DNA of 64,000 nucleotides, from the NCBI RefSeq assembly GCF_900545535.1, contig NZ_UQZN01000010.1, one strand, 5' to 3'. The first letter of the stretch is position 1; the number at the start of each line of letters is the position of its first letter. Under the pieces are notes generated by a model, which saw only the letters and a list, made by a program, of their open reading frames with translations, was not told the DNA's origin and did no database searches. Source of the DNA: an uncultured Phascolarctobacterium sp. (lineage in GTDB: Bacteria > Bacillota > Negativicutes > Acidaminococcales > Acidaminococcaceae). The position numbers were made by a program, and so were the translations under genes. Below are positions 7,064 to 35,220 of this stretch, piece by piece.

Positions 7064-7210
7064 TCAAAATACATCATCACCACGCACCAGGATACACAGC
7101 CGCCAAGCTGCAAAACACAGCAAAACGCGACAATACCGTTTTTTTAAAACCAATAAAAACAGTACATATGTATCCACCTTGTGCATCGCAAGTCATCACG
7201 GATGTTAAAA

Positions 7211-7345
7211 CAGGCAGTTCTCCTGGCTTCGGATCATTGCTCGGCCACGCCTTCTCAGGTTTCCCCAATGGACAAATGCGGCTTCGCTCCCCGTTACAGT
7301 TGCGGGACAGCGCAGGTCTTACACCTGCTTCTCTATTAAGTCCTC
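7211..7345 (-). promoter_or_regulatory. Cobalamin (adenosylcobalamin) riboswitch
   Basis: Minus-strand RNA AAUAGAGAAGCAGGUGUAAGACCUGCGCUGUCCCGCAACUGUAACGGGGAGCG...GUCCAUUGGGGAAACCUG...GAAGCCAGGAGAACUGCCUG matches the conserved cobalamin-riboswitch core (GGUG.AA.UCC...GC.G.CCCGC.ACUGUAA, B12-box-like GYCAYUG, 3' CCAGGAGA.CUGCC). Confidence 0.8.
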
Positions 7346-7506
7346 CAAGCAATCGCTTTTGGACACCTGCTTTCTTACCATATTAAATTTTAAAATTTGA
7401 TAAAGTCAGCTTATTCATAATAAATTTTAAATAAACTATACAGTCATTATAAACTTCATGCTTTTTGTAGTCAAGCAAAAATTCTAAAATTCACTTTATT
7501 TCTTCA

Positions 7507-11875: not shown

Positions 11876-14800
11876 TTAGAAACTATATTCCAGCGTTGTG
11901 TAATACATACGACCGGCAAGCGGATAGAAAGAAGCCGTCTTAGGTCCATAATACATACCGGTAGTGATGAAAACTTCCTTACCTTTATCAAAAACATCAT
12001 TGACGCCGGCGCTTAAACGCCATTTTTTATCAAATTTATATTTGACTCCCAAATCAACGATCGAATAAGAATCGCGCACGTCTATTGCATTGGCATCGCC
12101 AGAATCAGTACCACGCAAGATCTCCTGATCGGTATAACGGTATTCTCCGAAAACGTTCAGTTTGTCACCGGGGAACAGATAATCAACTCTGGCGCTGACG
12201 ACCCATTCAGGTACAAAAGATGCTCCGCCTTGCGCCCAGTTATAGTTATAACCCAAACCGTTACCCACTTCTTTACTTTTCTGCCATGTTGCTGCCAAAG
12301 CCAGGTTCAAGCGCTGCCATTTCATATTATGAGCCAGTTCAAGGCCATATGTTTCAATATTACCTGTCGGGCAATAACAACTTAATCCATCTCCGCCACG
12401 CGGTGTCCACAGTACAAGCTGGTTATTTGCTTTGCGCTGATACCAAGTAAGGATTGTATCCGTATCAGCTCCGGCCAGCTTGCCCTGCCAGTTCAGGCTG
12501 AAATCGAACTGACTGCCTGTTTCCCATAAGCCATTATCAATATTCCCGCCTTTACCGGCAACAGTAAAGACATAGTTTTGCCCAACAAAGCCGCCATCAC
12601 CAAAGATTTCGTAGAAGTTGGGATGCCTGTTATAAGTACCCCAGGTAGATTTAAAGCTCCAGTGGTCGTTGAGCTGCTTCTGCAGCGCCACGCCACCTGA
12701 ATACATCCAGCGGCTATCAGCATCGCCCAAATCACCAAGTCCTTCCATCTCTACTTTATCGGCACGCAGGATCGGTGTCAGCTTAAAATCGCCATCATCA
12801 TTGAGGGTAATAGTGTCCTGCAAGGTCAAATGATATTCACGGTTATTATATTTGGAAAGCATTTTTCTAACGGTTCTATTAACACCAGTTTGACTATCAA
12901 TTTGTTCCTGCGTAAGATCCCATCTGTTGCCATTAGCATCCATAGTTTCACGAGTATAATCCGCATTGAATTCCAGCAGATGGTTGCTGCCCAGCTTCAT
13001 CGCCGTATTCAGATTGCCGTTCCATTTTTTAGAACGCCAGGTTCCCCATAATTCACCCGGCAAATAATCGTTCTCATCCCTTTTTGCAAAAGGATCACCT
13101 GTTATTATTCCATTTTTTGTATCCTCTATTTGCCTGTAACCGCCTATATTAGTATAAGTTTTTTTGCTGTCCAGATAGGCAATATGCCACCCCAGATCAA
13201 GGTTGCCAAGCGTATCGCGACGCCCGATCAAAAATTCTTTATAATCAATATCCATATCAGCATCGAAATAGCCGGAATTTAAATAAGGAATTACATAGGT
13301 TCTATTTACTGCCCTGGCAAGCCCTTCATGCATCTTTTTCCAAACACCTTTAACTGTCCAGTGATCATCCTGCCATTTAAGCATGGCATTATTATTCTGA
13401 TAACCGTTACTTTGGCGTTTGTAAGTGCCTGCAAGTACATTATTTTGGGTATTACTGCTCTGCGGCCAAATATAATCAAAATCTCCATGCCAGATATCAC
13501 GGGCATAGGTAGCAAGCAGACTGCCGCTGCCAAGCGGCATGCTGTATTCATAGGTACTGCTGTAGCCGCCATAGGATTTGACGCCCTGGGTGATATGCCC
13601 GTGCCCTTCGTTGGGCTTTTTAGTGATGATATTGATAACACCGCCTAGTGGCGCACCGGCAAAACGAGCCGGTACATAACCGCGATAGACTTCGATGCGT
13701 TCAATATTATCAGCCGGGATCGCCGACAGATTGACTGCCGCATCACCGGTCAGGTTCATCTGCACGCCGTCCACATAGACGCTGACCTGCGCAGCCGTTG
13801 ACCCACGTACACGCGCTACAGTATAATGTCCGACGCCATTAAGCCGCTGCACGAATAAGCCAGGCACTCTGTCCAGAAGTTCCGGCAGGTTCTTCTGCTC
13901 ACCCTCGAATTGTGCCGGATAAATAACGCTGACCTGACCCGGGCTGAGATTCTTTTCCCAGTCGGGACGTTTGGCTTCAACAGTCAGCCCGCCCAGCTCA
14001 AACTCGCCCATACCGCCGGTGACTGTGCCGCTGACGCTGCCCGTATCATCACGGACAACACTGCTGCCCGCCTCGCCCATATCATAAACAGCCCGGCTGT
14101 CAGCACTTCCGCTTTCAGCAGCAACACTCTGCTGCGCCTGCTGCATCTGCGGCACCTGCACGTTGCCGACCTTGGGCGCCTGCCCCACTACCACGGTGGG
14201 CGCATTGGCTTTGGCAAAGCCGCCACCGTTTACAGACGGCTCCCCGCCTGAAGCATTTACTTTAGCCGCTTTGCTGCCGCCGCTGCCGAAACCGCCCCAG
14301 CTGAAGTCCAGCCCGCCGTTGATGCTCCATTCGTTGCCTACGTCGCTGCCGGTAGTTTTGATAAAATCAAGGTTCAAGGCAGCATTGGGTGAAAGTTTTA
14401 CTTTGCCGCCCACGTTCCATTCCCACCAGCTGTCGCTGCCGCCAACCGTTTCAACCAGTCTGTTTAAAGCCCCATAGCTTTGGTGCAGCTTTTGCCCGCC
14501 GGCAAACTCGTGTCCCCAGCTGACGCCGGCATAGATGTTGCCTTTGTCGCCGATATTTTTACCGGCTTTCAGCCCCAGCTTGCCAATGGCAGTATCATAT
14601 CCCTGTTCGTGTATGCCCAAGCCGTTAGTCAGTTTATAGCTGCTTTCATCCACATGGCCCACATACAGGGATACGGAAGGTTCCCAGAACCAATTAGAAC
14701 TAAGTTCATTGCGCTTGCCGTACTGCGCGCCGATACCGTAGGCCCAGGTACTGTTATCGCCTTTGACCTTGCCGATGCTGCCGTTGCCAGTATTACCGGT

Positions 14801-17074
14801 AAAGTGATAATCATTTTTAAGTTTAAAGGCGTTGACCCCCAGGTCGATAAAGTGCCCTTTGTCGCCCACCCAGCTGCTGTAAACGCCTACGCCATAGCTG
14901 TCCTGCTCACCTTTACCTGCAGCTGTAGTGCTTTTGCCGTCGATCTTGCTGGCATAAAAACCGGTATAGACCTTACCGCCATAGAATTTTTTGCTCAACA
15001 GCTTATCATAACCGACCTGAAAGCCGTTATAAGACTGGTTGGTGCTGCGGGCATAAGCCGCCTTGGCGTCAAATTTGCCGTGCCAGACATCGGCCCATAA
15101 ATTCTCGCGCAGCTCGCCGGCCAGTCCGCTCTCATCATGCTGGGGCCCATTGCCGCCAGCTTCCTGGCGGTTCAATCTTCCGCCGTGCAGGTTTTCGCTG
15201 CGGCGAAAGAGGCTGAGGTTATTGGCTTTGACAAAATTATTCTGCACCGTGCTGTTTTCGGAAACACTTTTACCGCTTTCCGCCATTTCACCCGTATCAG
15301 CATAAGTATAACCTTTTAAATACCACACTGTACCCTGCAAATTATCATAACCAATGATATTCCCCTTATCATCAGTTATGGCCTTGCTATCCGCAGTTTT
15401 AAAATAATTTTCATATTTGCCTACTTCCGGCGTGATTTCATAAACACTAAAAATACCGTCCGCCAAACTGGTTTGACCTGTTACTTCAAAATTATCAGCG
15501 CCATTATAAATACCGATCAAAGCATTAGGAACGATAATATTTCCAAGTTGATTCTTTACTTCATTCGGATTTTTCCATTCACCGAAAAGCGAAGTACCGT
15601 TGACTTCCGGTACATAACCGAGTTGAATATAGAGATTATTTTTAGCATCATCACTGCCATTATTTTTGGCGGCGTCTGTAATGTATACATTGTCATTATC
15701 ACGTACTGGAACGACCCCACTACCTCCAATAAGCGGTTCATAATTTTGATATACGCCAAGCCTGAAGGCAGTATTATCCGCCAGCTTCGCATCATTTACA
15801 AATAAGCTTCTGTTTATTTTGACCTTATTAGTAGCAATGGTTCCTTGTGATGTATCACTTATATATTCAACATTAATCGTATTAGCATTTCCTTCGCTGT
15901 CAGCGCCCTGCAGCACATACGGAGCTTGCCCATCAATACTGTTAGTATTAAGATAGCTCAAATCAATTACACTGCCAGATTCTGTAGTTAATTCACCAAC
16001 TGATATGACAGTCGTAGGAACATTCTCTATGGGTTTAGGACTGTCCAATTCATAATCATTATCCAGCTGCGTATTATCAGTAAAAGAAGAATCAACATCC
16101 GGATCACTCGCACCTATTGCTGTTTTACCGTCTTCAGTTACCCAATTTTTGTCACCCGGTGAATAATCGCCATTCAAATTACTGCTAATAGTTACAGCTC
16201 TGTCCAGCGGTGTCCACCTTTCACCAGCCGCTACTGACTTTTGGTCATAGGTATAACTTTTGCTGCCTCCAGAAAAAGAATCTCCCGTACCTAACTGAAA
16301 TCTTGTTTGTATACTCTCTATAATATCTGGCGAAGCAAAATTAAGACTCGAATCATTCATATAATTTAATACATTGGAGGCAGTAGTATTATTAATCGCA
16401 GCTTTTACCGTAGCTAACTCATCATCACTCAACTTAATATAACACATACTTGGCAGGTATTTTGTCATCCACTCTTGTATCTTCGCATCATCATTATTTT
16501 CAATATATCCATACAGCTCTCTTTGCGCATCAACAGTTGTCATTCCAGTATTTTCATTTAAAAAATTCATCATTTGCGTTCCGGTTATCGCTAAACAGTC
16601 CTTGCTAACATTTCCAACTCCAAGAACTTTATAATAATAAGCGCCGCTGTCAGCATCTCTTATTTTAATTGCAAATGCATTTGCACCCTCAGGAACAAAG
16701 CCTGTTCTCATCAGCGTACGCCATAAAATGCTATTCCATGAGTTTTTTGAGAAACTTGGTTTTACATTACTATTGGTCAATCCTTTATTGGCACCATCAG
16801 GATCAAGTCTAATAGTTTTATATACATTAACAATATTATTTTGCACTATACTAGAATCAGAAAAATTAATAAATGTATCTTGTCCGCCAACCTTATTAGT
16901 ATTGACAGCAGTATTATCATAGTATTGTACGGCATTTCTGCCCAGGGTTTCCGCCGCAAATGCACACTGGGGGGGGGCAAACGGTGCGATTACGCCTAAC
17001 GATAAGGCAATAGCCGCCGGTAATACTTGTAATGTTCTTTGCCTTCTCAAATTTTTCTTCATCATATCCTCCAC
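11876..17074 (-). CDS. 1732-aa fusion ORF: signal peptide, autotransporter passenger (~aa 45-620), autotransporter beta-barrel (~aa 621-926, ends FSW), Gly-rich periplasmic linker, and TonB-dependent receptor plug plus 22-strand barrel (~aa 1041-1732, ends TTLEYSF)
   Basis: Continuous frame with no stop. Extended signal peptide MKKNLRRQRTLQVLPAAIALSLGVIAPFAPPQCAFA. Translocator-like region LWADVWHGKFDAKAAYARSTNQSYNGFQVGYDKL...NLDFIKTTGSDVGNEWSINGGLDFSW. TBDR plug LPELLDRVPGLFVQRLNGVGHYTVARVRGS...VYVDGVQMNL...IERIEVYRGYVPARFAGAPLGGVINIITKKP with C-terminal aromatic F. Approximate nt split: autotransporter part 14297..17074, TBDR part 11876..14296. The start is a GTG at 17074 or the ATG pair just downstream. 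Confidence 0.7.
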   Translation of the reverse strand: MEDMMKKNLRRQRTLQVLPAAIALSLGVIAPFAPPQCAFAAETLGRNAVQYYDNTAVNTNKVGGQDTFINFSDSSIVQNNIVNVYKTIRLDPDGANKGLTNSNVKPSFSKNSWNSILWRTLMRTGFVPEGANAFAIKIRDADSGAYYYKVLGVGNVSKDCLAITGTQMMNFLNENTGMTTVDAQRELYGYIENNDDAKIQEWMTKYLPSMCYIKLSDDELATVKAAINNTTASNVLNYMNDSSLNFASPDIIESIQTRFQLGTGDSFSGGSKSYTYDQKSVAAGERWTPLDRAVTISSNLNGDYSPGDKNWVTEDGKTAIGASDPDVDSSFTDNTQLDNDYELDSPKPIENVPTTVISVGELTTESGSVIDLSYLNTNSIDGQAPYVLQGADSEGNANTINVEYISDTSQGTIATNKVKINRSLFVNDAKLADNTAFRLGVYQNYEPLIGGSGVVPVRDNDNVYITDAAKNNGSDDAKNNLYIQLGYVPEVNGTSLFGEWKNPNEVKNQLGNIIVPNALIGIYNGADNFEVTGQTSLADGIFSVYEITPEVGKYENYFKTADSKAITDDKGNIIGYDNLQGTVWYLKGYTYADTGEMAESGKSVSENSTVQNNFVKANNLSLFRRSENLHGGRLNRQEAGGNGPQHDESGLAGELRENLWADVWHGKFDAKAAYARSTNQSYNGFQVGYDKLLSKKFYGGKVYTGFYASKIDGKSTTAAGKGEQDSYGVGVYSSWVGDKGHFIDLGVNAFKLKNDYHFTGNTGNGSIGKVKGDNSTWAYGIGAQYGKRNELSSNWFWEPSVSLYVGHVDESSYKLTNGLGIHEQGYDTAIGKLGLKAGKNIGDKGNIYAGVSWGHEFAGGQKLHQSYGALNRLVETVGGSDSWWEWNVGGKVKLSPNAALNLDFIKTTGSDVGNEWSINGGLDFSWGGFGSGGSKAAKVNASGGEPSVNGGGFAKANAPTVVVGQAPKVGNVQVPQMQQAQQSVAAESGSADSRAVYDMGEAGSSVVRDDTGSVSGTVTGGMGEFELGGLTVEAKRPDWEKNLSPGQVSVIYPAQFEGEQKNLPELLDRVPGLFVQRLNGVGHYTVARVRGSTAAQVSVYVDGVQMNLTGDAAVNLSAIPADNIERIEVYRGYVPARFAGAPLGGVINIITKKPNEGHGHITQGVKSYGGYSSTYEYSMPLGSGSLLATYARDIWHGDFDYIWPQSSNTQNNVLAGTYKRQSNGYQNNNAMLKWQDDHWTVKGVWKKMHEGLARAVNRTYVIPYLNSGYFDADMDIDYKEFLIGRRDTLGNLDLGWHIAYLDSKKTYTNIGGYRQIEDTKNGIITGDPFAKRDENDYLPGELWGTWRSKKWNGNLNTAMKLGSNHLLEFNADYTRETMDANGNRWDLTQEQIDSQTGVNRTVRKMLSKYNNREYHLTLQDTITLNDDGDFKLTPILRADKVEMEGLGDLGDADSRWMYSGGVALQKQLNDHWSFKSTWGTYNRHPNFYEIFGDGGFVGQNYVFTVAGKGGNIDNGLWETGSQFDFSLNWQGKLAGADTDTILTWYQRKANNQLVLWTPRGGDGLSCYCPTGNIETYGLELAHNMKWQRLNLALAATWQKSKEVGNGLGYNYNWAQGGASFVPEWVVSARVDYLFPGDKLNVFGEYRYTDQEILRGTDSGDANAIDVRDSYSIVDLGVKYKFDKKWRLSAGVNDVFDKGKEVFITTGMYYGPKTASFYPLAGRMYYTTLEYSF

Positions 17075-17445
17075 ACCAACTTAAAAATTCCAGCATTTCT
17101 GTTTTGCCGTTTCTAAACATGATCATCGTTTAGAAACTGTCATTTTACAGCAGTATGTAAGTACGCGTCACTACTCGCATTTTTACCTGCTGCTGTAAAA
17201 TTCGGACACTTTCAGCAAAAAATAACGCCGCATTTTCTACCAGTCCATTCGGTGAAAGTGCAGCGTTTGTTTTTACCAAACAGTCTGCTCCGCTTTTCTG
17301 GTCGAAAATACTAAAATTTCCGCGCTGCTGGTTTCAGCGCATAATCATAGCGTCCGCAGAAATATTTGCCTGACAAAACGCCAAACCTAAATATCTCTGC
17401 AAAATTTTCTCCCAGTCTGTCTACGCAGGCTGTTCAAAAGATAGA

Positions 17446-17570
17446 ACCAGTCAGCACTCTGACTCAAGATCATTACTCCAGCATCCCTTAGTGAAAGGAC
17501 TGCAATGCTGAAGCTCCCTAATACAGTTGCGTGACAGCGCCGGATTCACACCGGACTTCCCTATAAAACT
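17446..17570 (-). promoter_or_regulatory. Cobalamin riboswitch (proximal copy of a tandem pair) upstream of the autotransporter-TBDR gene
   Basis: Minus RNA UAUAGGGAAGUCCGGUGUGAAUCCGGCGCUGUCACGCAACUGUAUUAGGGAGC...GCAGUCCUUUCACUAAGGGAUGC...GAGUCAGAGUGCUGACUGG contains the conserved core and B12-box-like elements. Confidence 0.7.
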
Positions 17571-17744
17571 TTGGATTTCTACATTCCAAAATACCCAGCT
17601 CTAATTTTTCATTTTTGAAATTGTCAATGGACACGTCATTTATTACTCCAGCACTTGTGACCGCAAGCATGGATGCCGCCACCCCAGCGGCACCACGCCC
17701 AAAGGTCTGAGTTGAGTGGAGTTTGCAGGCTATGACTGAACCTG

Positions 17745-17784
17745 CAGGAAATAAGAACTGCCCCCCTGCTAACGCAGAGGGGCA
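17745..17784 (-). terminator. Terminator hairpin of the distal riboswitch expression platform
   Basis: Minus RNA CUGCCCCUCUGC guuag GCAGGGGGGCAG followed by UUCUUAUUUCC. Confidence 0.5.
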
Positions 17785-17829
17785 GAAAAACTTGCATAAC
17801 AAGCGTATACCAGTTTTTCCAACTCTCTG

Positions 17830-17945
17830 TCTCTCGCAGTAGTTAGACTGTCAGGCTGATTGCTGGCTTTAGGGCTAAACCCCTTACAGCGCCGGGAGCG
17901 CAGCGGAATTGCACCGCTTCTCATTTTGTGATTACCACCTGATAA
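17830..17945 (-). promoter_or_regulatory. Cobalamin riboswitch (distal copy of the tandem pair)
   Basis: Minus RNA AUCAGGUGGUAAUCACAAAAUGAGAAGCGGUGCAAUUCCGCUGCGCUCCCGGCGCUGUAAGGGGUUUAGCCCUAAAGCCAGCAAUCAGCCUGACAGUCUAACUACUGCGAGAGACAG matches the conserved core. Confidence 0.7.
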
Positions 17946-17966
17946 ACATTACTATTTTCTTGATAT

Positions 17967-18001
17967 GTTAAATCATACAACTTACTTTTACTTATGTCAA
18001 C
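17967..18001 (-). promoter_or_regulatory. Candidate sigma-70-type promoter for the tandem riboswitch leader
   Basis: Minus strand TTGACA, 17 nt, TATGAT, ending about 10 nt before the first aptamer. Confidence 0.35.
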
Positions 18002-18156
18002 CTGTTTTTCAAGTATGTATACAATATTCTTTTTCGTTTTATTAAATATTTTCTAATGAAATTTAATTTATAAAAAACTAAATTGTATAAATCTAATATC
18101 AGTATTTTGTCAAAACTGCTTATGTACAGCCCGCTTATAACCATATCTTCCAGCGG

Positions 18157-19449
18157 CTAGTTTTTATAAAAAATTTTACCTGTCATTTTTAAATAAATAA
18201 ACTGTTTCAGCTGGCTGAATGTGCTTTGCATAAAATAAGCCCAGCCGTTGATGCCAGCATAGGTTTCCCTGTTAATATGCAGTCTGGCTGCAGGCATTGC
18301 CAAATTAAAATAAATTGTTTTTTCGATGTCGCCTATTTCTATCCGTTCTCTATCGGTGCCGCAAAAAATCTGATATTCATCGCTATCCAGTTGGGGCAAG
18401 TCGTCAGCATACTGCCACTTGTGATAATTGTTTTCATCTGCATTCCGGCAGCTGTTACTGATCCGTACAAAACATTTTTCCGGCAGCGGCAGATCATAGG
18501 CGGCAGCTTGTGCCAGGCTGCGGGCACAGCTGCTGCCAGCCGAAATAACCATCCGTTTGAGCTGCCAGTTATTATCATAGTCGCGCAGTGCTGCAAAGGT
18601 ATCAAAAATGCTGTCCTGAAAGATTTTTATTTCTGTCAGCAGGTAGTCTGCATTGCAGTCCAGATCCAGTGCTGCCGTTATTTTCCGCAGCCATTCAATA
18701 CTTTGCGAAAAGCCATAGGGTGTGTCGGCGATAATATATTTCTGCTGCAGCTTTTCCTGCAGCCATTCGGCAACGGGCAGTCCCAGTTCTTCATTTATTA
18801 CTACGTTCAGTTCTGCTTTGCCTGTCTTTTTTAAATCTTCCCAGTCTGTACCATTATCAAGCAGGCAGAGGTTTACTTTTACGCCTACACTTTTTAGCAT
18901 TCGTTTAAGTTCCAGCATATCGCCTTCCCAGTTTGGATAGCAGGTGCTGCTGCCTATCAGGTTGACTGATGAAGGTTCAGGTGCAGCAGGCTGCAGGCCG
19001 CTGCATTCAAGTAACTCTATCACAGCCCTGCTCCAGCCGTTCCAGTATTCACCGCTCAATCCTCCTGCATCCACGGCAATTATCGGGCAGCCCGGCTGCA
19101 GGTTTTTACAGACGCCTTTGATGTCGTCGCCGATCAGGCTTAATGAACAGCTTGTAAGCACTGCCAGCAAAGAATTTTGCGGGGATGCGCAGGCTTCTGC
19201 TATTGCCTGTTTAAGTTTTTCACTTACGCCGTATAGAAGGTCTGGTTCCAAAACTTCTGAGCAAAAAAGCCTTTGTTCATATTCTTTAACTGCGTTTGCC
19301 AGTTCGCGTTCGGCCAATACGGCGCACCAGCGGGGGCAGTTCATAACTACTTTACTGCCTGTAACGCTTAAAAAAGCAGAGGCCGCACCTGTCATTTGGC
19401 AATAGCCTTGGCAGGGCTGCCAGCGTTTTAATTTTTCATCTGTTTTCAT
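18157..19449 (-). CDS. Nitrogenase component-1-like oxidoreductase, NifK/NifN/BchB-like subunit (Oxidored_nitro family)
   Basis: 430 aa. N-terminal Cys cluster QPCQGYCQMTGAASAFLSVTGSKVVMNCPRWC. LTSCSLSLIGDD and CPIIAVDAGG motifs typical of NifK/NifN-type subunits. Overlaps the D-like gene by 14 nt. Confidence 0.75.
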   Translation of the reverse strand: MKTDEKLKRWQPCQGYCQMTGAASAFLSVTGSKVVMNCPRWCAVLAERELANAVKEYEQRLFCSEVLEPDLLYGVSEKLKQAIAEACASPQNSLLAVLTSCSLSLIGDDIKGVCKNLQPGCPIIAVDAGGLSGEYWNGWSRAVIELLECSGLQPAAPEPSSVNLIGSSTCYPNWEGDMLELKRMLKSVGVKVNLCLLDNGTDWEDLKKTGKAELNVVINEELGLPVAEWLQEKLQQKYIIADTPYGFSQSIEWLRKITAALDLDCNADYLLTEIKIFQDSIFDTFAALRDYDNNWQLKRMVISAGSSCARSLAQAAAYDLPLPEKCFVRISNSCRNADENNYHKWQYADDLPQLDSDEYQIFCGTDRERIEIGDIEKTIYFNLAMPAARLHINRETYAGINGWAYFMQSTFSQLKQFIYLKMTGKIFYKN

Positions 19450-20716
19450 ATACCAGTTCCCTTTGCTCAGTTAATGTTTCAGCTAATTTCAGCAAAAAGT
19501 TTTCGCTTCCTTTTCTTCCTACTCTTCTAAAGCCAATGCAGTATTGCGGACGCGAGCATTTTTTAGGTGCAGTTGTTATCACAAGATCAACAAAAGTATT
19601 TTGCAGCTTTGTTTCGTCGTAATAGTTTGTTTTTAAATTTTTTCCCAGCAGCTTTTTATGCATCAGCTGTTCGGCAGTAGTCAGTTCGTCGCAAAAAATT
19701 ATTCCCTGCAGCTTTAAGCCGGCTTCTTCCAGCATTTTTATTATCGGCAGCGGTTCAAAATATCTCTGCGGCAAACTAATAGCCAAAATATAGCTCTTGC
19801 CCTGAAGCAAGGCAGTGATGTTCTGTAAAAATTCGCTGTAGGCCAGACGTTCTTTTTCTACTGCTTTTATAGCTTCTTGCTTTCTGCCTAAAGCAGTTCC
19901 AAGGTCCAAAAGCCATTCATATGTTGCTTCAAGGCTGCTGGGGATACCTAAATTTATGTAGCTTATCTGCATGGTTTCGGCAAACTGTCTGGCAAAAACC
20001 CGCACTGCTTCAAGATTTTTGGGGATGAATCCTATAGCTGTAACTGCACTGACTGCGGCAGTTTCCTGCAGCTGCTTTAAAGTCATGCCGCCAGGAGGAT
20101 AATAGATATTTTTAAATCCGAACAATCCTAACAGTCTGTTGATTTCATCGATCTCACTTTCGCGGCTGAAAATGACGTTGATACCAAATACTGCCAGTGC
20201 CGCTGGATTTTTAGCAGTACCGCTTAAAGGATAGACGAGCTTTTGACATAAAGCTTTGGTGACTGACAGTACGCCGTCCACCGCTTTTTGATTCATAAAG
20301 CCTGAGCCTTCGACACATAAAACAGGTATACCTGTACTGGCTTCAGTTTCTCTGCAGATCGCTTCAACATCGTCGCCAATAACTCCGGCGGCACAGCCTG
20401 CCGCTACGATGATATATTCCGGTTTCCGTACTGCGGCAATGTCCAGCAGACATGCTTTTAAGAGTTTTTCGCCGCCAAAAATAGCTTCTTTATCTGCCAG
20501 CCCGGTAACAAACAGGTTGCTGCCATCACATTGGCCGTTAAAATATTTATTAGTGGTAATTTTAAGGCGCATTTCCCAAAATGCGTTGTGTGCGATGTGC
20601 GAACATGACTTGGGAGCATGAAAGACTATTGAAGCCCGAGGATTATAAGCGGCAGCCAGAAAAACACTCATCAAGTTACAGTGAATAACTTTTTTCCGTT
20701 CTGAATTTCTGATCAT
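19436..20716 (-). CDS. Nitrogenase component-1-like oxidoreductase, NifD/NifE/BchN-like subunit (Oxidored_nitro family)
   Basis: 426 aa. KVIHCNL...HAPKSCSH (HGPxGC-like P-loop Cys motif). VAAGCAAGVIGDD (the IGDD motif of NifD/E). 4-nt overlap (ATGA) with the upstream binding-protein gene. Confidence 0.75.
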   Translation of the reverse strand: MIRNSERKKVIHCNLMSVFLAAAYNPRASIVFHAPKSCSHIAHNAFWEMRLKITTNKYFNGQCDGSNLFVTGLADKEAIFGGEKLLKACLLDIAAVRKPEYIIVAAGCAAGVIGDDVEAICRETEASTGIPVLCVEGSGFMNQKAVDGVLSVTKALCQKLVYPLSGTAKNPAALAVFGINVIFSRESEIDEINRLLGLFGFKNIYYPPGGMTLKQLQETAAVSAVTAIGFIPKNLEAVRVFARQFAETMQISYINLGIPSSLEATYEWLLDLGTALGRKQEAIKAVEKERLAYSEFLQNITALLQGKSYILAISLPQRYFEPLPIIKMLEEAGLKLQGIIFCDELTTAEQLMHKKLLGKNLKTNYYDETKLQNTFVDLVITTAPKKCSRPQYCIGFRRVGRKGSENFLLKLAETLTEQRELVYENR

Positions 20717-21696
20717 TTTTTCGTCCCATTCGTATTTTCATAAACTATTGCATATAATTTTTCTATTCCTGCGGCGGCGTGGTGTGACAGGCAATTGACA
20801 TAGCTTTGCGGTATAACTACAGCCTGACGTTTTTGAATGGCGGTTATACCGGCATAGGCCGGGTCATTATATATTTCTTCCAGTTGTTCTTCGCTGTTTT
20901 TATATGCCCCGCCTTGCGACCATGAGCCAAGCAGTAGAAATTCCGGGTTGGTTTTGATAACTTCTTCTTTACTCAAAATACGGCTGGTGCCTGCATAGTC
21001 TTTGGTAACAGGGCGTGCCTGTTCATAGCAGTCGTCGATGCCGGCCGCAGTCATGATGTCGTTATAGATGCATCCTGCTCCGCCTATAGCTCCAAAGCGC
21101 AGGAAAAGCAAGGCTGAGCGGCGCTGCTGCGGTGGTATGGCTGCTACTTTGGCCTGCATTGCAGCGAGCCTTGCCTGCATATTTTTTACGATCTGCTCTG
21201 CCTGTTCGTTTTCGCCTACTGCGGCGCCCATACTGCGTACTAAGGCAGGGATTTCGTCGAGTCTGGAGATGTATTTAAAAACATATACTTTTATGCCTAC
21301 TTCTTCCAGGCTGTCTATATATTCACGCTTGGCAGTGTCCGGCACAAAAAGCAGATCAGGTTTCAATGCTACTATGGCTTCAAGGTTATTTTCTACTATG
21401 CCCTGTACGTCTGCAGCTTGTTTATAAGCCATCGACAGCCCCTGGTCGTGTACCCATTTACTGACGCCTGCTATTTTTTGATGCTCAACAAGGTCTAGCA
21501 ATATTTCATCGGCATAAACAAAGCTGCTGGCAATATGTTCAGGCTTTTTTTGAAAGCTGATTTCTTTACCGCGGAGGTCGCGTACTGTGTAACTTTGTTG
21601 CTGCTGCCCGCTAGATGGCAGCAGGTCAATATTTTTACTGCAGCCGCTTAGGCAGAAGGCCAGCGTCAATAGCAGGTACAGCAAATATTTGGGCAT
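20713..21696 (-). CDS. Periplasmic substrate-binding lipoprotein, class III (BtuF/FecB/HmuT-like)
   Basis: Lipobox LSGCS. Paralog of 4793..5770 and 31958..32947 (shared motifs LKPDLLFVPD, VYVFKY). Confidence 0.8.
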   Translation of the reverse strand: MPKYLLYLLLTLAFCLSGCSKNIDLLPSSGQQQQSYTVRDLRGKEISFQKKPEHIASSFVYADEILLDLVEHQKIAGVSKWVHDQGLSMAYKQAADVQGIVENNLEAIVALKPDLLFVPDTAKREYIDSLEEVGIKVYVFKYISRLDEIPALVRSMGAAVGENEQAEQIVKNMQARLAAMQAKVAAIPPQQRRSALLFLRFGAIGGAGCIYNDIMTAAGIDDCYEQARPVTKDYAGTSRILSKEEVIKTNPEFLLLGSWSQGGAYKNSEEQLEEIYNDPAYAGITAIQKRQAVVIPQSYVNCLSHHAAAGIEKLYAIVYENTNGTKK

Positions 21697-21734
21697 CGAC
21701 GGTCATCTCCCTTCGTTCAAAATATACTCTTTAT

Positions 21735-23552
21735 TTAAAAGGTGCGTTCATAGGTCAGCATCCAGTTGCGTTCTTCCAGCAATGCGCCGGAAGTACCGTT
21801 GCTGGAACCGGTTCTGATATCGTCTCTGTTCAGCAGATTATACACAGTCAGTCTTAAAGTGTCTTGATCTGTCAGTTTATGCGCAATGTTCATGTTAATG
21901 TCAAGCATCGGTTTGGTTCCATTTACGCGGCCTGCCATATAGTTGGCAAAAATATTGGCTGAAGTTTTTGCAAGTTTATAGCCTACGCCAGCGTTCAACC
22001 CCAGTTTAAAATCAGTGCGTTCCCATTCTCCGCTGCCAATGGTTTTCTGCTGCGGGTTGGCATAGGAAACTCCTAAATTGTAGCTGAATTTCTGGCTCAA
22101 AGCTTTTTCATAGCTCAGTTCAACGCCGGTATTACGGTATTTTTCGGCATTTTTATAAATATTAAGGCCAGTGGCACTATCTTTGGCACGATAGATCCTG
22201 TCATCGATTTCCATATGGAAAACATTTAATTTAAGCAGATCGCTGTCGGTAAATTTCTTTTTCCAGCCCAGTTCATAGTTCCAGCCGCTTTCTGCTTTCA
22301 GGTCAGGGTTCATGACCTGGGTAGATGTGCCCCATTGTTCGTTGACGTTGGGAGCGCGCATCGATTTATTGATGTTCAGGTAAAGATTTTCATTTTCTCT
22401 GAGGTTTTGCAATATTTGAAGCTGCGGGCAGAATTTACTGCCTGATTCTTCTACATATGCTTCGCGGGCGCCTAAAAACAGTTTTGTTTTGGCACCCAGC
22501 TGCGTTTCGGTCATGAAGAATACTGCACCGCTGTCACGTTTGGCGCTTTCAGCTCCGACAGTATTTTTGGTGTCTTCATTTTCATAGTTGGCGCCGGCCG
22601 TTAAAACAACCTTTCCCAGCTGCCATTTATTTTGAATATCGGCACCGATATTATGACCTTTTTGATGTGTAGTAGTATTGTATTTCCAATCTCTGCTGCG
22701 CATATATACGGCAGCGGATAAATCATTATTGTTATAGCGCATTTGCCCAAAATGATATTGGATATTGCTATGGAAACCAGGTGCATATTGCCCATTATTT
22801 AATTTGGAGCAGTCGGAAATCTTTTTGCTGTACATATATTGAAACAGCAAATTATCGGTTATATTATATTGCAGATTCAAGCTGTCTTTTTCCAGGTTAT
22901 CTCCCATATAAAAACTTGTAGGATTGGACTGATACACTTTGCCGCGCCCTTTGGATTGCTGACGGCTGTAACTGATTTGTAATTTATCGGTCGCAACATT
23001 GACTGCGCCTTTGAACTTATTTTTATCGCCCCAGCCTGCAAGGACTTTGGTTTTGCCCTGTTTTTTATTGGTTATGATATTGATGACACCGGCACTGGCG
23101 TTAGAGCCATATAATACTGCCGAGCCGCCTTTTACTACTTCGATCCTGTCAATGATGTCGGTCGAAATGGATTCAAGATCATAGTTACCGTCCTGATTGA
23201 GCGGAATGCCGTTGACTAAAATAGCAACATTATCCTTGGATACGCCTCTAAAACCAATATATGTGTTGCCCGTAGGCGAAGCAGTCAGCGTAAAGCCGGG
23301 TATATTTCTAACTACTTCCATGACATTGTTGGCACCCAAGCGTTCAATTTTTTCCTGGTCAAATATTTCCGTTGCCGCAGGGATCTCAAGGTCACGTGTT
23401 TCATAGCGCGTAGCAGTAACTAACACAGGGTCCAGTTCAAAGCGTTCTATCTCGTTTTGTTGTTTGTCAGCAAATGCTGTACCCCCCCAGATGACACTCC
23501 CGCTTATCAATGCTACCATCAGTGTACTTTTACTCAAACTTTTCTTCATCAT
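21735..23552 (-). CDS. TonB-dependent receptor (BtuB-like)
   Basis: SD AAGGAG before MMKKSLSKSTLMVALISGSVIWGGTAFA. TonB-box region LDPVLVTATR. Plug and barrel motifs. C-terminal LTYERTF. Confidence 0.85.
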   Translation of the reverse strand: MMKKSLSKSTLMVALISGSVIWGGTAFADKQQNEIERFELDPVLVTATRYETRDLEIPAATEIFDQEKIERLGANNVMEVVRNIPGFTLTASPTGNTYIGFRGVSKDNVAILVNGIPLNQDGNYDLESISTDIIDRIEVVKGGSAVLYGSNASAGVINIITNKKQGKTKVLAGWGDKNKFKGAVNVATDKLQISYSRQQSKGRGKVYQSNPTSFYMGDNLEKDSLNLQYNITDNLLFQYMYSKKISDCSKLNNGQYAPGFHSNIQYHFGQMRYNNNDLSAAVYMRSRDWKYNTTTHQKGHNIGADIQNKWQLGKVVLTAGANYENEDTKNTVGAESAKRDSGAVFFMTETQLGAKTKLFLGAREAYVEESGSKFCPQLQILQNLRENENLYLNINKSMRAPNVNEQWGTSTQVMNPDLKAESGWNYELGWKKKFTDSDLLKLNVFHMEIDDRIYRAKDSATGLNIYKNAEKYRNTGVELSYEKALSQKFSYNLGVSYANPQQKTIGSGEWERTDFKLGLNAGVGYKLAKTSANIFANYMAGRVNGTKPMLDINMNIAHKLTDQDTLRLTVYNLLNRDDIRTGSSNGTSGALLEERNWMLTYERTF

Positions 23553-23712
23553 CAGCTCTAACTCCTTGCCATTTAATGTGTAATACAGTAAAATCATATT
23601 AGTCACTATTATGCACGTTTTTTCTTTTTGATAATTTATTTAATTAGCTTTTGTTACTGTATTACTTATCTAATGATAAAGTATATAATGCTTATAGTGT
23701 CAAGGTGGTTTT

Positions 23713-26702: not shown

Positions 26703-26909
26703 ACTCAACTTCCTTTCACTACATTTTTATTATTGAAATAAAGACATTTCCTGTACTCATTCTTTATGACCGCACATTATTTGCCTTTACTTGCAATCAC
26801 CCAAAATAAAAATACCTTCTGCGCTAAGGCAAAAGGCATTGAACAGCTTAATTCAAAATAAAAGAAGCCGATAACATTACCTAACTGTCTCACGCAGCAG
26901 TAAAGTAAT

Positions 26910-27055
26910 TATCAGGCAGTTCTTCTGACTCAAGTTCATCATTCATCCAAGCCTTCCCAGATAAATTCCAGTGGCATATTTTGGATGAACTCACTTTTAC
27001 AGCGACGGGATCGTGTGGGTTTTACACCCAGCTTCTCTATTAAGACCTGTGTCAC
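26910..27055 (-). promoter_or_regulatory. Cobalamin riboswitch
   Basis: Minus RNA UUAAUAGAGAAGCUGGGUGUAAAACCCACACGAUCCCGUCGCUGUAAAAGUGAG...AUGCCACUGGAAUUUAUCUGGGAAGGCUUGG...GAGUCAGAAGAACUGCCUG, with a canonical GCCACUG B12 box. Confidence 0.8.
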
Positions 27056-27169
27056 CTGATAATATTCATATACATTTATTTTGCAAGTATACTATAAATA
27101 ATTTTACAATGCAATCTTTTATTTTTATTTGTTATTTAATTTTCTTTTTCAATAACTATTTTGTTGCAT

Positions 27170-29380: not shown

Positions 29381-29420
29381 TGGCAGGGCCTATAAGTGCC
29401 CTGCCATTTTTTATTTTTTG
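29381..29420. terminator. Rho-independent terminator shared by convergent genes
   Basis: GGCAGGGC ctataagt GCCCTGCC TTTTTTATTTTTTG. Confidence 0.65.
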
Positions 29421-30691
29421 TTGTTATTTATATATTCTAGCGTATTGATCTGATCGATAAGCAGCTGCATAAAATTTTGCCAGCCTCTTATACCGGCAAA
29501 AAAGATGTTTTTTGATTTTATTTTACAGGATGGCATGGAAAAGTTTAAATATAAAGTTTTGTCAAAATCGCCAATTGCCATTCGTTCTCTTTCACTGCCT
29601 AAAAACAGCTGGTAATTATCAGGTTTTAATTGCTCCAATACCATACTTTCGTCCCAATAGCGATATTTATTACTACAGCTGTCATTTTCCTGTATACTTC
29701 TTTTTAAATAAAATTCCTCAGCCAGCAAAAGTTCACATTCACTGTTTTGTATTCCCCTAAGTATACTATCGGCTATTGAGCAGGGTGCTGTTGTAATTAT
29801 GCGTTGTAATCTGTATTCTAAATAGTTATGTTTTACCAGGCAGCATTCATCAAAAATATCCTTTGCAGCTATTTCTATCTCGCTGTTAACAGCTTTTAAT
29901 TTTGGTGGCTGTTGTAATGCTTCACCTACAGCCTGCAGCCATGCAACAGTATTTGTAAAGCCATATGGCCAGGGAGCTATAATATATCGCTGCCCTGTTT
30001 GTTCATAAATACTTTCGGCGATCAAGCTGCCCATTTCTGGTGTCAGTACTATATTCAGTGCAGCTTCTGATAGTTTTTCCAGTTCTGCCAGTTCCAGCTG
30101 ATCTTCACCTAGTACAATACCTATTTCGTAACCTGCTGCTGAGAGAAGTCTTTTTATTTCTGCTAAATCTCCCTGCCAATGTGGAAAGCATGTACAGATT
30201 CCCAAAAGGTTGACTTTATTTTTTTGTCTGCTTGTAGAAACTTTAAAAGTACTTTTTTTGAGAAGCTCCAATAGCGCTTTTTGATAGCCATTTGCAAAAG
30301 CTCCTGTAAATCCACCTGTTTCTATGGCCAGAATAGGGCAAGTTACATTATTTTTTTTGCAAATCCCTTCTATATCGTCACCGATAAGGCTCATGGAACA
30401 ACTGGTTAAAACTGCAAGTAAGCTTGGATTGTTTACGTTTAATACTTCTGCCAGGCTGGCTGATAATGATTCTTCAACTCCATATAAAATATCTTTTTGC
30501 CTTGCTTCTGAACAGAAGAGCCTTGTTTCATAGTTTTTTACTGCATTTGTAAGTTCGCGTTCGCCTATTACTGCGCACCATCTGGGGCTGTTAAGGATAA
30601 CGCTTGTATTTTTAACGCTTAATATTGCTGCGGCTGCTCCAATCATTTGGCAATATCCTGTACATGGGCGAAATTTATTCAAATTATTCAT
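29411..30691 (-). CDS. Nitrogenase-like NifK/NifN/BchB-like subunit, paralog 2
   Basis: 426 aa. FRPCTGYCQMIGAAAAILSVKNTSVILNSPRWC. LTSCSMSLIGDD and CPILAIETGG motifs. Paralog of 18157..19449. 8-nt overlap with the D-like gene. Confidence 0.75.
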   Translation of the reverse strand: MNNLNKFRPCTGYCQMIGAAAAILSVKNTSVILNSPRWCAVIGERELTNAVKNYETRLFCSEARQKDILYGVEESLSASLAEVLNVNNPSLLAVLTSCSMSLIGDDIEGICKKNNVTCPILAIETGGFTGAFANGYQKALLELLKKSTFKVSTSRQKNKVNLLGICTCFPHWQGDLAEIKRLLSAAGYEIGIVLGEDQLELAELEKLSEAALNIVLTPEMGSLIAESIYEQTGQRYIIAPWPYGFTNTVAWLQAVGEALQQPPKLKAVNSEIEIAAKDIFDECCLVKHNYLEYRLQRIITTAPCSIADSILRGIQNSECELLLAEEFYLKRSIQENDSCSNKYRYWDESMVLEQLKPDNYQLFLGSERERMAIGDFDKTLYLNFSMPSCKIKSKNIFFAGIRGWQNFMQLLIDQINTLEYINNNKK

Positions 30692-31961
30692 GGATAAGAC
30701 TCCTGTTTTCCTTAAATAACAGATATAATTTTTCCAAAAATCTTATACTGCCGCCGATACCAATTCGTTTTCTTTTTATGCAATATTGATGTTTAAATGT
30801 TTCACGATAGTCACTTGTAATGATTATATCTTTTTCTGCATCTATTGGCAAAGGATAGTTTTCGTGATCTATTTTTAACTGCAAATTGTTTTTTGATATG
30901 AAATCTACGTATTCAGATTTTTCTTTTGCGGTGAGTTCGTTTAGTAAAATTACATGTTTTAGTTGTATACCAGCTTCCTGCAATAATGCAATAAATTCCA
31001 GCAGATTCCAAAATTTTATAGAGTGGCTGATAGCAAGCACGCAGCTTTTGCCATTTAAATAGCTTCGTAATTCAGTTATTTTACTCTGCCAGCGTTTTGT
31101 TTCGCATAAAATGGCTTGATCCGCAAGTTCTTTTTGATTGAGTTTAGCTCCCAGTTCTTGTAAATAAGCCAGCGTTTCCGTAATCGTCAATGGCAGACGT
31201 TTTTCAATGAACGGAATCTGCAGTTTTTGGGCAAAACCGGCAGCAAAATATTTATATTCATTTAATTTACTGTCAATAATAGAGTTCACGCCAACTACAC
31301 TGGCACTGCTAAGTTCCTGCATCTCTTTTATCGTCATCCCGCATGGCGGCAGCATAATATCATCAATGCCAAAATAATGGTACATTCTTCTTATTTCTTC
31401 TATGTCTTCTGTCATTAAATAGAACTTGTTAATACCAAAAATAACTGCACTTTTACTATTTTTAATAGCAGAAGAAGTCATAAATTTTTCCAGAAAATAC
31501 TTTGTTGTAAGCAAAAGCCCTTCCTGCTGCTGATTACTCATAAAACCGGCTCCGGGAATATGTATTACGGGTATTTTAAAATTCGCTTCTGTCTTTGCGC
31601 ATATCGCTTGAATATCATCACCTATGACACCAGCAGCACAACCTGATAAAACTACCAGGCATTCAGGGTTCTTAGCTTTGATTATCTCAGCCAAACTATT
31701 TTGCAGCAGTTTTTCTCCGCCAAAAATAGCTTCTCTATCTGTGATTCCTGTAATAAAAAGGTTATCATAATTTGGTGGTAATTTCTTTTTATATCTAAGT
31801 CTTATTCTTCGCCTGCTTTCAAGCAGAGCGTTGTACACTATGTGCGAGCACGACTTAGGTGCATGCAGTACGACTACTATTCCTTTATTAAAGGCAACCG
31901 ACATATAGATGTCACTTAAGTTACAATGAATAACTTTTTTACGATTTGTTTTCTTTATCAT
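30684..31961 (-). CDS. Nitrogenase-like NifD/NifE/BchN-like subunit, paralog 2
   Basis: 425 aa. KVIHCNL...HAPKSCSH. LSGCAAGVIGDD. Paralog of 19436..20716 (clearly homologous along the full length). 4-nt overlap with the binding-protein gene. Confidence 0.75.
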   Translation of the reverse strand: MIKKTNRKKVIHCNLSDIYMSVAFNKGIVVVLHAPKSCSHIVYNALLESRRRIRLRYKKKLPPNYDNLFITGITDREAIFGGEKLLQNSLAEIIKAKNPECLVVLSGCAAGVIGDDIQAICAKTEANFKIPVIHIPGAGFMSNQQQEGLLLTTKYFLEKFMTSSAIKNSKSAVIFGINKFYLMTEDIEEIRRMYHYFGIDDIMLPPCGMTIKEMQELSSASVVGVNSIIDSKLNEYKYFAAGFAQKLQIPFIEKRLPLTITETLAYLQELGAKLNQKELADQAILCETKRWQSKITELRSYLNGKSCVLAISHSIKFWNLLEFIALLQEAGIQLKHVILLNELTAKEKSEYVDFISKNNLQLKIDHENYPLPIDAEKDIIITSDYRETFKHQYCIKRKRIGIGGSIRFLEKLYLLFKENRSLIHE

Positions 31962-32947
31962 ATCTGTTTTGCCTGCTTTATCGATCCAATTTTTGCAAAA
32001 TATTCTGGATATGTTTTTTGAGCTATGTCTAAGATACCGTCACCTATATATTGCGAAGCCGCATATCTGTAGCGATCTTTTATGATAATGACATTATTAT
32101 TTTTGATTGCTTTGATGCTCTGCAGTGCCGGGTCTTTTAAAACTTCTTTTCTAAAAAGTACGGTATCGCCTTCCTGGGTCGAACTGTAATCTGGAAACAT
32201 CAAAACGTCAGGGTTGACTTCTACTATTTTTTCTTTGCTTAGATGTTCACCACGAACAAGGCCCGCTACGGCAGCGCCGTTGATTACGCCGGCATTGATA
32301 CAGATGTCGTTGAACAGACCTTCTGCACTTCCAAAAACCCCCAGCAGCGAATACCCCATCAATATCTTTTTTTCTTCTGCCGGTATTGCACCGATCACGT
32401 CTTTTACAAGCTTTGTTTTATGATCCAATTCGTCAATTATTCTGTTTCCCTGCTGCTGTTCATTTACAGCCACCGATAAATTAATTATTCTTTGACGTAC
32501 CATGTCCAGCGTGGTAGGCACTTTGGTTATATATACCTTTAGCCCCACATCTTTTAAGGCTTGGATAAATGCTGTGTTTGAGTTTTCCTGCACGATCACA
32601 AGGTCGGGTTTAAGGGCAAGAATTTGTTCTACGCTTACTTTTTGCGGAAGTTTCAGGGGAATCTGCGCAGCTTTATCGATAATCAATGATGTTTTAGGAT
32701 CAGCAGCTGGTTCCGAGATTGCTGCAATGCGTTTTAAAGGAACCATATCTGTGAGTATTTCTTCAAGACTGAGCGTTGTGGCATAGATTCGTTTAGGGGA
32801 TTCGCTAAAATGCAGAATATTCCCTTTGTCGTCAGTTACCTGATACTGAGTTTGAACTGCCGTGTTTTCAATAACAGTGTTTGGTTTTTCAAAGCTGCAG
32901 CCTGTTACCGCTAGTATCATGATTATTGCTAAAATAAAACTGCGCAT
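31958..32947 (-). CDS. Periplasmic substrate-binding lipoprotein, class III (BtuF/FecB-like), paralog
   Basis: Lipobox VTGCS. Motifs LKPDLVIVQE and KVYITKVP. Confidence 0.8.
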   Translation of the reverse strand: MRSFILAIIMILAVTGCSFEKPNTVIENTAVQTQYQVTDDKGNILHFSESPKRIYATTLSLEEILTDMVPLKRIAAISEPAADPKTSLIIDKAAQIPLKLPQKVSVEQILALKPDLVIVQENSNTAFIQALKDVGLKVYITKVPTTLDMVRQRIINLSVAVNEQQQGNRIIDELDHKTKLVKDVIGAIPAEEKKILMGYSLLGVFGSAEGLFNDICINAGVINGAAVAGLVRGEHLSKEKIVEVNPDVLMFPDYSSTQEGDTVLFRKEVLKDPALQSIKAIKNNNVIIIKDRYRYAASQYIGDGILDIAQKTYPEYFAKIGSIKQAKQI

Positions 32948-32979
32948 TCTGTTCTCCTGTCAAAAATTTTTATTGATTT

Positions 32980-34989: not shown

Positions 34990-35115
34990 GCTAAATTCGT
35001 GCCTGTTCTCCCCTATACTGTCTCTCGCAGAAATAGAGTTACTGGTAAAAGCTGACTTAAGCAGTATTTTACTGCTAATACAGCGGCGGGACCGTGTTAG
35101 ATTCTCACTAACTTT
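34990..35115 (-). promoter_or_regulatory. Divergent or possibly shortened cobalamin-riboswitch-like leader
   Basis: Minus RNA GUGAGAAUCUAACACGGUCCCGCCGCUGUAUUAGCAGUAAAAUACUGCUUAAGUCAGCUUUUACCAGUAACUCUAUUUCUGCGAGAGACAG aligns with the 17830..17945 aptamer (CCCGCCGCUGUA, hairpin, GUCAGC, identical 3' CUGCGAGAGACAG). The GGUG-containing P2/P3 segment appears reduced. Confidence 0.4.
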
Positions 35116-35220
35116 TATTTATTATACATTACCAGTATCAAATATCAAATTTATTTTTCTACTATGTGTGATATAATACTATGTATAGTCATTAGACAGT
35201 CAAGAGGTTGGTGAAAATTT

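Follow-up and report, generated by a model that had tools for sequence, protein, structure and literature searches.

The DNA analyzed here, called the window throughout, is a stretch of 64,000 nucleotides (nt) from an uncultured Phascolarctobacterium sp. of the human gut. The whole window was scanned against Rfam 15 (4227 families), in which the Cobalamin family RF00174 has a gathering score of 31.5 bits, and five matches to the cobalamin clan were found. Two of them, named RS1 and RS2, lie in one leader of about 900 nt on the minus strand, ahead of a minus-strand gene that encodes a fusion of an autotransporter and a TonB-dependent receptor. The remaining three stand singly (27074..26898, 7385..7196, and 35130..35006). 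An earlier note on this DNA had placed tandem cobalamin riboswitches at 17446-17945 and had called them the only tandem of the window. The scan confirmed the location and the uniqueness of the pair, but the span had cut about 12 nt from each outer end, and the strand is the minus strand. Transcription runs from right to left through a promoter, RS1, a terminator, a 133-nt spacer, RS2, about 370 nt of further leader, the sequence GGAGG, and the start codon. The main features of the locus are the following.

17972..18000, minus strand: sigma-70-type promoter, with the -35 hexamer TTGACA at 18000-17995, a 17-nt spacer, and the -10 hexamer TATGAT at 17977-17972 (11/12 consensus positions)
17837..17957, minus strand: RS1, a minimal cobalamin aptamer of 121 nt (RF00174, 43.8 bits, E=1e-07 for the whole window)
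17614..17746, minus strand: inter-aptamer spacer, structured and non-coding, 133 nt (fold z = -2.6)
17433..17613, minus strand: RS2, a long divergent cobalamin aptamer of 181 nt (RF00174, 42.6 bits, E=2.2e-07)
11876..17072, minus strand: Shine-Dalgarno sequence GGAGG (17072-17068), start codon ATG at 17062 (or 17065), and the regulated gene; the ATG at 17062 is common to all relatives

Both aptamers named in the earlier note therefore scored above the RF00174 threshold, and a permissive Rfam rescan of 17000-18300 returned only chance-level matches beyond them. The gap between the aptamers is 223 nt. Direct-repeat analysis (repeat D1) gave a core-to-core spacing of 352 nt, and the two cores were 76% identical over 25 nt. 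Two RF00174 aptamers are thus found upstream of a single open reading frame (ORF), with no ORF between them. The promoter hexamers were invariant in six related leaders, while the spacer between the hexamers varied. No terminator was predicted between the end of the upstream operon (18157) and the promoter, so the switches would also gate read-through from upstream. We consider it probable that the leader carries two serial cobalamin OFF switches on one transcript. In the proposed mechanism, one promoter at about 18000 would drive the whole leader of about 900 nt, with RS1 transcribed first and RS2 second.

The closest genome matches were in uncultured Phascolarctobacterium (locus L001, protein 91% identical) and in Ca. 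Avacidaminococcus intestinavium (L003, 66%). More distant relatives were found in Sporomusa, and human-gut metagenome contigs added near-orthologues. A short aptamer (about 120 nt) followed by a long one (about 181 nt) was present in five orthologous leaders (L001, L010, L011, L022, and L023). The orthologous copies scored 37.9-44.3 bits for RS1 and 35.4-38.9 bits for RS2. In L003, a short aptamer at 421-543 (37.9 bits) and then a long one at 1012-1188 (106 bits) precede the orthologous gene. An extra protein search for orthologues returned two proteins, both with tandem leaders. The upstream neighbour in L022 is a different gene, another receptor, which indicates that promoter, leader, and gene move as a unit. 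The paralogous genes (59-61% identical; L002, L012, and L014) have an RS2-type aptamer only, which scored 34.6 bits in L012 and 68.3 bits in both L002 and L014. Independent tandems of full-length canonical aptamers were found in Sporomusa sp. KB1 (L005, 2263-2761, before a TonB-dependent receptor gene) and in a metagenomic contig (L019, 3409-3888). In these two tandems the aptamers scored 98-116 bits each and were 96-137 nt apart, which shows that tandem cobalamin switches recur in the relatives sampled.

RS1 is a minimal form of the aptamer. Its P2 is a hairpin of 3-5 base pairs (bp), its L5 is UCCCG, and its P6 is a 4-bp hairpin (AGGG-GUUUAG-CCCU) without a peripheral extension, in which 6 nt replace 61 model positions of the P6 extension. 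A small hairpin and loop in place of the P6 extension is the mark of a Cbl-II (class II cobalamin) or yvrC-like hybrid; this likeness rests on architecture, and the Rfam scan suppresses overlapping clan matches (RF01689, RF01482). The family consensus for the core comprises a GGUG..AA.CC T-loop (L4), a CCC-containing L5, ACUGUAA, and the B12 box AGCCAGGAGACCUGCC. The corresponding elements of RS1 are GGUGCAAUUCC, UCCCG, and GCUGUAA, with the B12 box shortened to AGCCAGCAA-UCAGCC. The P2 and P6 stems were altered yet still paired in L001, L022, and L003, flanking stems likewise kept their pairing in the close relatives and in L003, and P6 co-varied to GGC/GCC in L022 and to GAAG/CUUC in L003. 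Three elements of a recognisable expression platform follow RS1 directly.

17827..17839, minus strand: P13-like mini-hairpin CUG-CGAGAGA-CAG (stem co-variation read from the alignment)
17775..17829, minus strand: predicted RS1 antiterminator, a long imperfect hairpin (inverted repeat I2, 24-nt arms, 75% complementary)
17747..17785, minus strand: RS1 intrinsic terminator, CUGCCCCUCUGC-GUUA-GCAGGGGGGCAG plus UUCUUAUUUCC (hairpin 17785..17758; 12 pairs, 9 of them G-C)

The stem of the P13-like hairpin is CUG/CAG in the window, CCG/CGG in L003, and CCA/UGG in L012, and the loop CGAG(A/C)GA is conserved. The terminator scan gave the tail UUCUUAUUUC, and the hairpin had a folding energy of -26.1 kcal/mol. 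Hence the distal aptamer has its own promoter (TTGACA/TATGAT) and its own terminator, as the earlier note had claimed. At the terminator, close relatives carry CUGCCUCCCUG / CAGGGAGGCAG (C-G to U-A), that is, different arms with the complementarity kept, and L003 has a strong terminator with a U7 tract at the equivalent position. The 3' arm of the antiterminator includes the 5' arm of the terminator, and the antiterminator was the minimum-energy fold of the nascent RNA (-19.4 kcal/mol) until the 3' arm of the terminator is made. An analogue of the antiterminator pairing is present in L003 (CGGAG with CUCCG). RS1 and its hairpin, antiterminator, and terminator are arranged as is usual for OFF switches that act by transcription termination. 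In the absence of ligand, the P13-like hairpin would pair, through its 3' arm and the next bases, with the 5' arm of the terminator, so that the antiterminator 17829..17775 would form and transcription would read through. With ligand, the aptamer and the hairpin would be held, the terminator 17785..17758 would form, and transcription would stop at 17758-17747.

In the paralog L012, positions 1709-1935, upstream of the lone RS2-type aptamer and in the place of RS1, contain a promoter, a structured element of about 150 nt, and a strong terminator. Two hairpins of this element recall RS1, one with an L5-like UCCCG and one with the CGAGCGA loop known from the RS1 platform, but a T-loop and a B12 box are missing, and the element had no Rfam match at E<=5. 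Either a degenerate RS1 or a leader element of an unclassified kind may be present here.

RS2 is longer and diverges in other places. Its P1 is formed by UAGAGCUGG/CUGGUUCUA, in which relatives replace G-U with A-U and keep the pairing. A P2 hairpin is present, and the P6 extension is reduced: 9 nt replace 22 model positions, with low posterior probabilities, and GCCACUG is missing. The core elements are GGUGUGAAUCC, GGGAA, and ACUGUAU; L5 is UCACG, which gives CACGC where CCCGC is expected, and the B12 box is altered to GAGUCA-GAGUGCUGAC. The earlier note had ascribed the conserved core to both aptamers, which is correct in so far as both passed RF00174, but not for L5 and the B12 box of RS2. 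The register of P1 and P2 in the aptamers is ambiguous, and RNAalifold on the RS2-type sequences did not recover the riboswitch fold, giving a long non-native helix that joins the aptamer core to the region after P1. The counterpart of RS2 in L003 has the canonical form. The RS2-type core is nearly identical at the paralogous receptor genes; because this type is the sole riboswitch there and its core is nearly invariant, it appears to be a working lineage-specific form and not a dead relic. Judged by its sequence, RS2 is a reduced form of the Cbl-I-like type. Directly downstream of it lies one further hairpin.

17409..17432, minus strand: P13/L13 hairpin of RS2, CAGCCUG-CGUAGA-CAGACUG (17432..17413), then conserved GGGAG (from folds and the alignment)

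This hairpin appeared first in the co-transcriptional folds, and the duplex between L5 of RS2 and L13 had a predicted energy of -10.9 kcal/mol. The pair L5 ACGC / L13 GCGU of the window becomes UCGC / GCGA in L002, one compensatory change read from the alignment, and the P13 stem also co-varies in L002 (AACCUG/CGGGUU). The hairpin 17432..17413 is the putative P13/L13 kissing hairpin for L5 of RS2. The earlier note had also described a weaker hairpin with a U tract after the proximal aptamer. That hairpin (17465..17444) lies within RS2 and is made of the aptamer's own B12 box and the 3' strand of P1, and it was rejected as an RS2 terminator.

The leader after RS2 is about 370 nt long (17432..17063); the earlier note had put it at about 340 nt. 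Its minimum free energy was -138.3 kcal/mol, in comparison with -95.8 ± 5.6 kcal/mol for shuffled sequences (z = -7.56). The post-RS2 leader had no Rfam match to a known RNA family at E<=1, and no copy of it was found elsewhere in the window or at other loci beyond the orthologues. The predicted hairpins are the following.

17073..17408, minus strand: structured remainder of the leader with hairpins A-E (minimum-energy folding)
17400-17356, minus strand: hairpin A, without a U tract in the window; its L003 homologue, just after RS2, is a terminator with a U5 tail
17340-17322, minus strand: hairpin B, from folding, a candidate RS2 output
17267-17224, minus strand: hairpin C, terminator-like, followed by AUUUUUU at 17223-17217 (-26.7 kcal/mol)
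17200-17143, minus strand: hairpin D, from folding
17137-17109, minus strand: hairpin E, a perfect 10-bp stem GTTTCTAAAC-N9-GTTTAGAAAC, invariant in relatives

Hairpins B and C, the candidate outputs of RS2, lie 90-220 nt downstream of it, and hairpin C is kept in the paralog L012 with wobble and compensatory changes. Transcripts that escape RS1 would meet RS2, which would be read out through the L5 kissing hairpin 17432..17413. The kissing interaction would alter the folding of the long structured leader, and the final output would probably be attenuation at hairpin C (17267..17215). The post-RS2 leader could be the platform of RS2 or a further regulatory element. In the folds, the P13 region and hairpin C are linked by pairings that compete with each other, and the polarity is ambiguous. 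Segment 17289-17277 can pair with the 5' arm of the RS2 P13 region or with that of hairpin C, and a locked P13 would then favour an anti-terminator of C. RS1 would be an OFF switch and RS2 an ON switch on this basis, with expression confined to an intermediate corrinoid range (a band-pass). We regard such opposite polarity as extremely unlikely. The pairings come from minimum-energy predictions of a 400-nt RNA, and neither L002 nor L003 conserves the long-range helices on which they depend. Such logic is not known from any cobalamin riboswitch before an uptake gene.

Serial action of two OFF switches, the reading preferred here, further depends on what lies between the aptamers. Leader ORFs of at least 20 amino acids (aa) were followed through a six-sequence alignment of the window and relatives 8-12% diverged. 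The ORFs of 53, 94, 51, 44, 22, and 21 aa gain stops or frameshifts in relatives. Those of 28 and 32 aa stay open, but the aptamer sequence that contains them is invariant, and L002 and L003 do not preserve them; the L003 leader has no comparable reading frame. A conserved small gene between the aptamers was thus rejected. Of the two findings by which the earlier note would have been refuted, such a gene and an element below the RF00174 threshold, neither was obtained. No promoter-like site was found between the aptamers by a consensus scan from 17957 to 17433; a TTGACA at 17626 has no usable -10 hexamer, and a second promoter there is not supported.

The two switches would not act in series if a promoter between the aptamers or at 17171-17142 drove the gene, or if RS1, or RS1 and RS2 up to hairpin C, made up a separate B12-responsive noncoding RNA. 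Riboswitch-controlled small RNAs of the eut loci of Listeria and Enterococcus provide a parallel, and hairpin C with its U6 tail could end such a leader transcript. Downstream of both aptamers and of hairpin C there is a promoter-like sequence (GTGACG, an 18-nt spacer, and TAAAAT; 9/12) at 17171..17142, whose hexamers are conserved. However, sites of this quality occur at chance level (3 found and 3.0 expected in shuffles), and this one is inside the conserved hairpin D. In addition to the lack of a promoter-like site between the aptamers, the whole leader accompanies the gene into a different neighbourhood in L022, and a cobalamin riboswitch before a TonB-dependent receptor gene is the standard cis arrangement, as at the other receptor genes of the window. 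A gene uncoupled from one or both aptamers in this way is very unlikely.

Possible traces of duplication were observed in the spacers. An exact 12-nt copy of RS2 17483-17472 (TGCTGGAGTAAT) is present at 17653-17642, and its score was reached by 1/500 shuffles. The spacer of L003 contains a fragment (760-845) with GGUGAAAAACC, ACUGUAA, a short hairpin, and the B12-box sequence AAGCCAGGACAGACUGCC, but without the 5' half of an aptamer. No Rfam match to a third aptamer was obtained at E<=5 in the spacer of the window or of L003, and the local alignment of the L003 fragment was not significant. The copy and the fragment may be what is left of a third aptamer and hint at an earlier duplication.

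Such apparent debris in the leaders, the 12-nt copy and the B12-box fragment between the L003 aptamers, would also be expected if only one of the two elements works and the other is a decaying duplicate, either RS2 without a proper terminator or RS1 with a weak kissing loop. The low family scores (43.8 and 42.6 bits, in comparison with 102-109 bits for the other RF00174 members of the window) point the same way, as do the loss of the U tract at hairpin A, whose homologue in L003 is a U5-tailed terminator after RS2, and the non-riboswitch element with terminator in the place of RS1 in the paralog L012. However, the paralogous receptor genes have no riboswitch other than the RS2 type, whose core hardly varies among them. 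P2, P6, the P13-like stem, and the terminator of RS1 change with the pairing preserved in two genera, and both elements exceeded the curated gathering score in every orthologous leader examined. Decay of one element is, on this evidence, decidedly unlikely.

Several points weigh against two serial OFF switches as well. Both aptamers scored just 10-12 bits above the threshold and deviate at conserved positions: RS1 has GAGA in place of GGGAA and the shortened B12 box, and in RS2 the CCC of L5 is replaced by CAC and the B12 box has lost 1 nt. The L13 loop of RS1 (CGAGAGA) pairs imperfectly with its L5 (UCCCG), while the counterpart loop in L022 (CGGGCGA) does match. RS2 has neither an adjacent canonical terminator nor an anti-Shine-Dalgarno sequence, and the minimum-energy folds from RS2 to hairpin C, taken literally, give the ON logic in which stabilisation of P13 favours the anti-terminator of C. 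The leader is no more conserved overall than the coding sequence (88-90% and 92% nucleotide identity, respectively). The close relatives are only 8-12% diverged and represent few independent lineages, and the covariation amounts to a handful of events read by eye. The single transcript and the OFF polarity are themselves what we infer from the features of the leader.

If both switches act as proposed, the two checkpoints would multiply and give more complete shut-off and a narrower corrinoid range than one switch. The steeper, more digital dose response proposed in the earlier note would follow if their sensitivities were similar; the aptamers are structurally unlike, which leaves no ground for taking their sensitivities as equal. 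Particularly strict repression of an expensive surface protein, also suggested in the note, would be plausible.

The product of the regulated gene has 1728-1732 aa and consists of a passenger, an autotransporter beta-domain, a Plug domain, and a TonB-dependent receptor barrel. The Pfam domains PF03797 (residues 659-903), PF07715 (1044-1146), and PF00593 (1269-1692) were found, in keeping with the autotransporter-receptor gene named in the earlier note. The passenger of 640 aa had no Pfam match, and a Gly/Ser/Ala-rich linker follows the autotransporter beta-domain, before the complete Plug and barrel. In two relatives the same region was called as two genes, of 713+996 aa in L022 (3001-8086) and of 889+826 aa in L023 (1203-6342).

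A poly-C tract lies in the signal-peptide codons GCC CCC CCC CAG (16977..16969, minus strand), and its length differs between assemblies. The window, L001, L009, and L011 have 9 C and an intact frame of 1721-1728 aa. L015 and L023 also have 9 C, and their frames have other causes for ending: L015 is a contig of 1125 nt, and L023 is split downstream. The frame is cut short after 47 aa in L010 and L022, which have 10 C, and after 83 aa in L013, which has 8 C. The variation looks like slipped-strand phase variation of the riboswitch-controlled gene; alternatively, it may be a homopolymer assembly error.

Two paralogous operons are on the minus strand of the window (18157-23606 and 29411-34911). 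Each encodes a TonB-dependent receptor, a periplasmic binding protein (PF01497), and two proteins of the nitrogenase-component-1-type oxidoreductase family (PF00148). The operon at 29411-34911 sits behind an RF01482 adenosylcobalamin (AdoCbl) riboswitch (35130..35006), and no riboswitch for the operon at 18157-23606 was detected by the whole-window Rfam scan.

Tandem AdoCbl riboswitches were first noted by Sudarsan et al. (2006), and 26 AdoCbl doublets were listed by Sherlock et al. (2022; PMC9481103). Tandem thiamine pyrophosphate (TPP) and other riboswitches give a pseudo-cooperative, steeper response, which needs two switches of similar sensitivity (PMC9481103). The arrangement as such is therefore already known; the pair in the window is a real, conserved instance of it and may be among the 26 listed doublets. 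Like the tandem TPP riboswitches of Bacillus anthracis and the AdoCbl doublets (PMC9481103), the leader has two aptamers of the same family without an intervening ORF, a first aptamer with its own intrinsic terminator, and a single gene downstream. Unlike the catalogued tandems, the aptamers are not near-copies, since RS1 is minimal without a P6 extension and RS2 is long and divergent, and next to RS2 no obvious expression platform is seen, with 370 nt of structured leader coming after it.

Each aptamer also resembles a known single riboswitch. RS1 shares with Bacillus subtilis yvrC (Chan and Mondragon, 2020; PMC7367189) the P2 stem-loop and a small hairpin in place of the large P6 extension, and with the Cbl-II classes (IIa and IIb) the lack of a peripheral extension (PMC7367189). 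However, P2 of RS1 has just 3-5 bp, and yvrC is a translational switch whereas RS1 carries a terminator. RS2 has a putative L5-L13 kissing loop and lies in the leader of an outer-membrane receptor gene, like the Cbl-I riboswitches before btuB-type receptors (btuB of Escherichia coli and btuB2 of Sporomusa ovata; Kennedy et al., 2022; PMC9600662), so that repression by B12 is expected. Unlike canonical Cbl-I, it has a reduced P6 extension without GCCACUG, CAC in L5, and an altered B12 box, and its target receptor is fused to an autotransporter.

Two independent OFF switches in series also make up the NOR gate of S-adenosylmethionine (SAM)-I and AdoCbl riboswitches at metE of Bacillus clausii, where each of the two ligands suffices to turn the gene off (Sudarsan et al., 2006, in PMC9481103). 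The ligands at metE are chemically unrelated, whereas both aptamers here belong to the cobalamin family, and a true two-input gate would be present only if RS1 and RS2 differed in corrinoid selectivity. Such a two-sensor gate, based on a difference in selectivity or affinity rather than on simple sharpening of the response, is unlikely, though it is the most novel of the readings considered. The difference could be between adenosyl- and methyl- or aquo-forms, or between base-on cobamides and base-off or incomplete corrinoids. The members of class II range from AdoCbl-selective to methylcobalamin (MeCbl)-selective (PMC6158498). The range of lower ligands accepted varies among cobalamin riboswitches, and most of those in Negativicutes are promiscuous (PMC9600662). 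For these reasons the architecture of RS1 and RS2 does not predict their ligands. Aquocobalamin (AqCbl) riboswitches are among the classes never seen in tandem (PMC9481103), and no mixed tandem of an AqCbl-type and an AdoCbl-type aptamer is known to have been reported. If the two sensors did differ, more kinds of gut corrinoids would shut the gene off, or the shut-off would proceed in two stages that span a broad range of concentrations, and the short-then-long order kept in two genera would reflect a division of labour.

The locus leaves the known principles of riboswitch control unchanged. Both tandem AdoCbl switches and the behaviour expected of them have been described before. What the locus adds is a Negativicutes example with a minimal form as the first aptamer.

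In Phascolarctobacterium the conversion of succinate to propionate depends on B12, and the bacterium competes for the corrinoids of the gut. The window has five corrinoid riboswitches before receptor operons, which point to heavily regulated uptake, and its sole tandem pair guards the largest and oddest receptor, the autotransporter fusion. If both switches work, the locus would be a natural test case for two unlike aptamers of one cofactor family, with either tighter repression or broader ligand coverage as the outcome.

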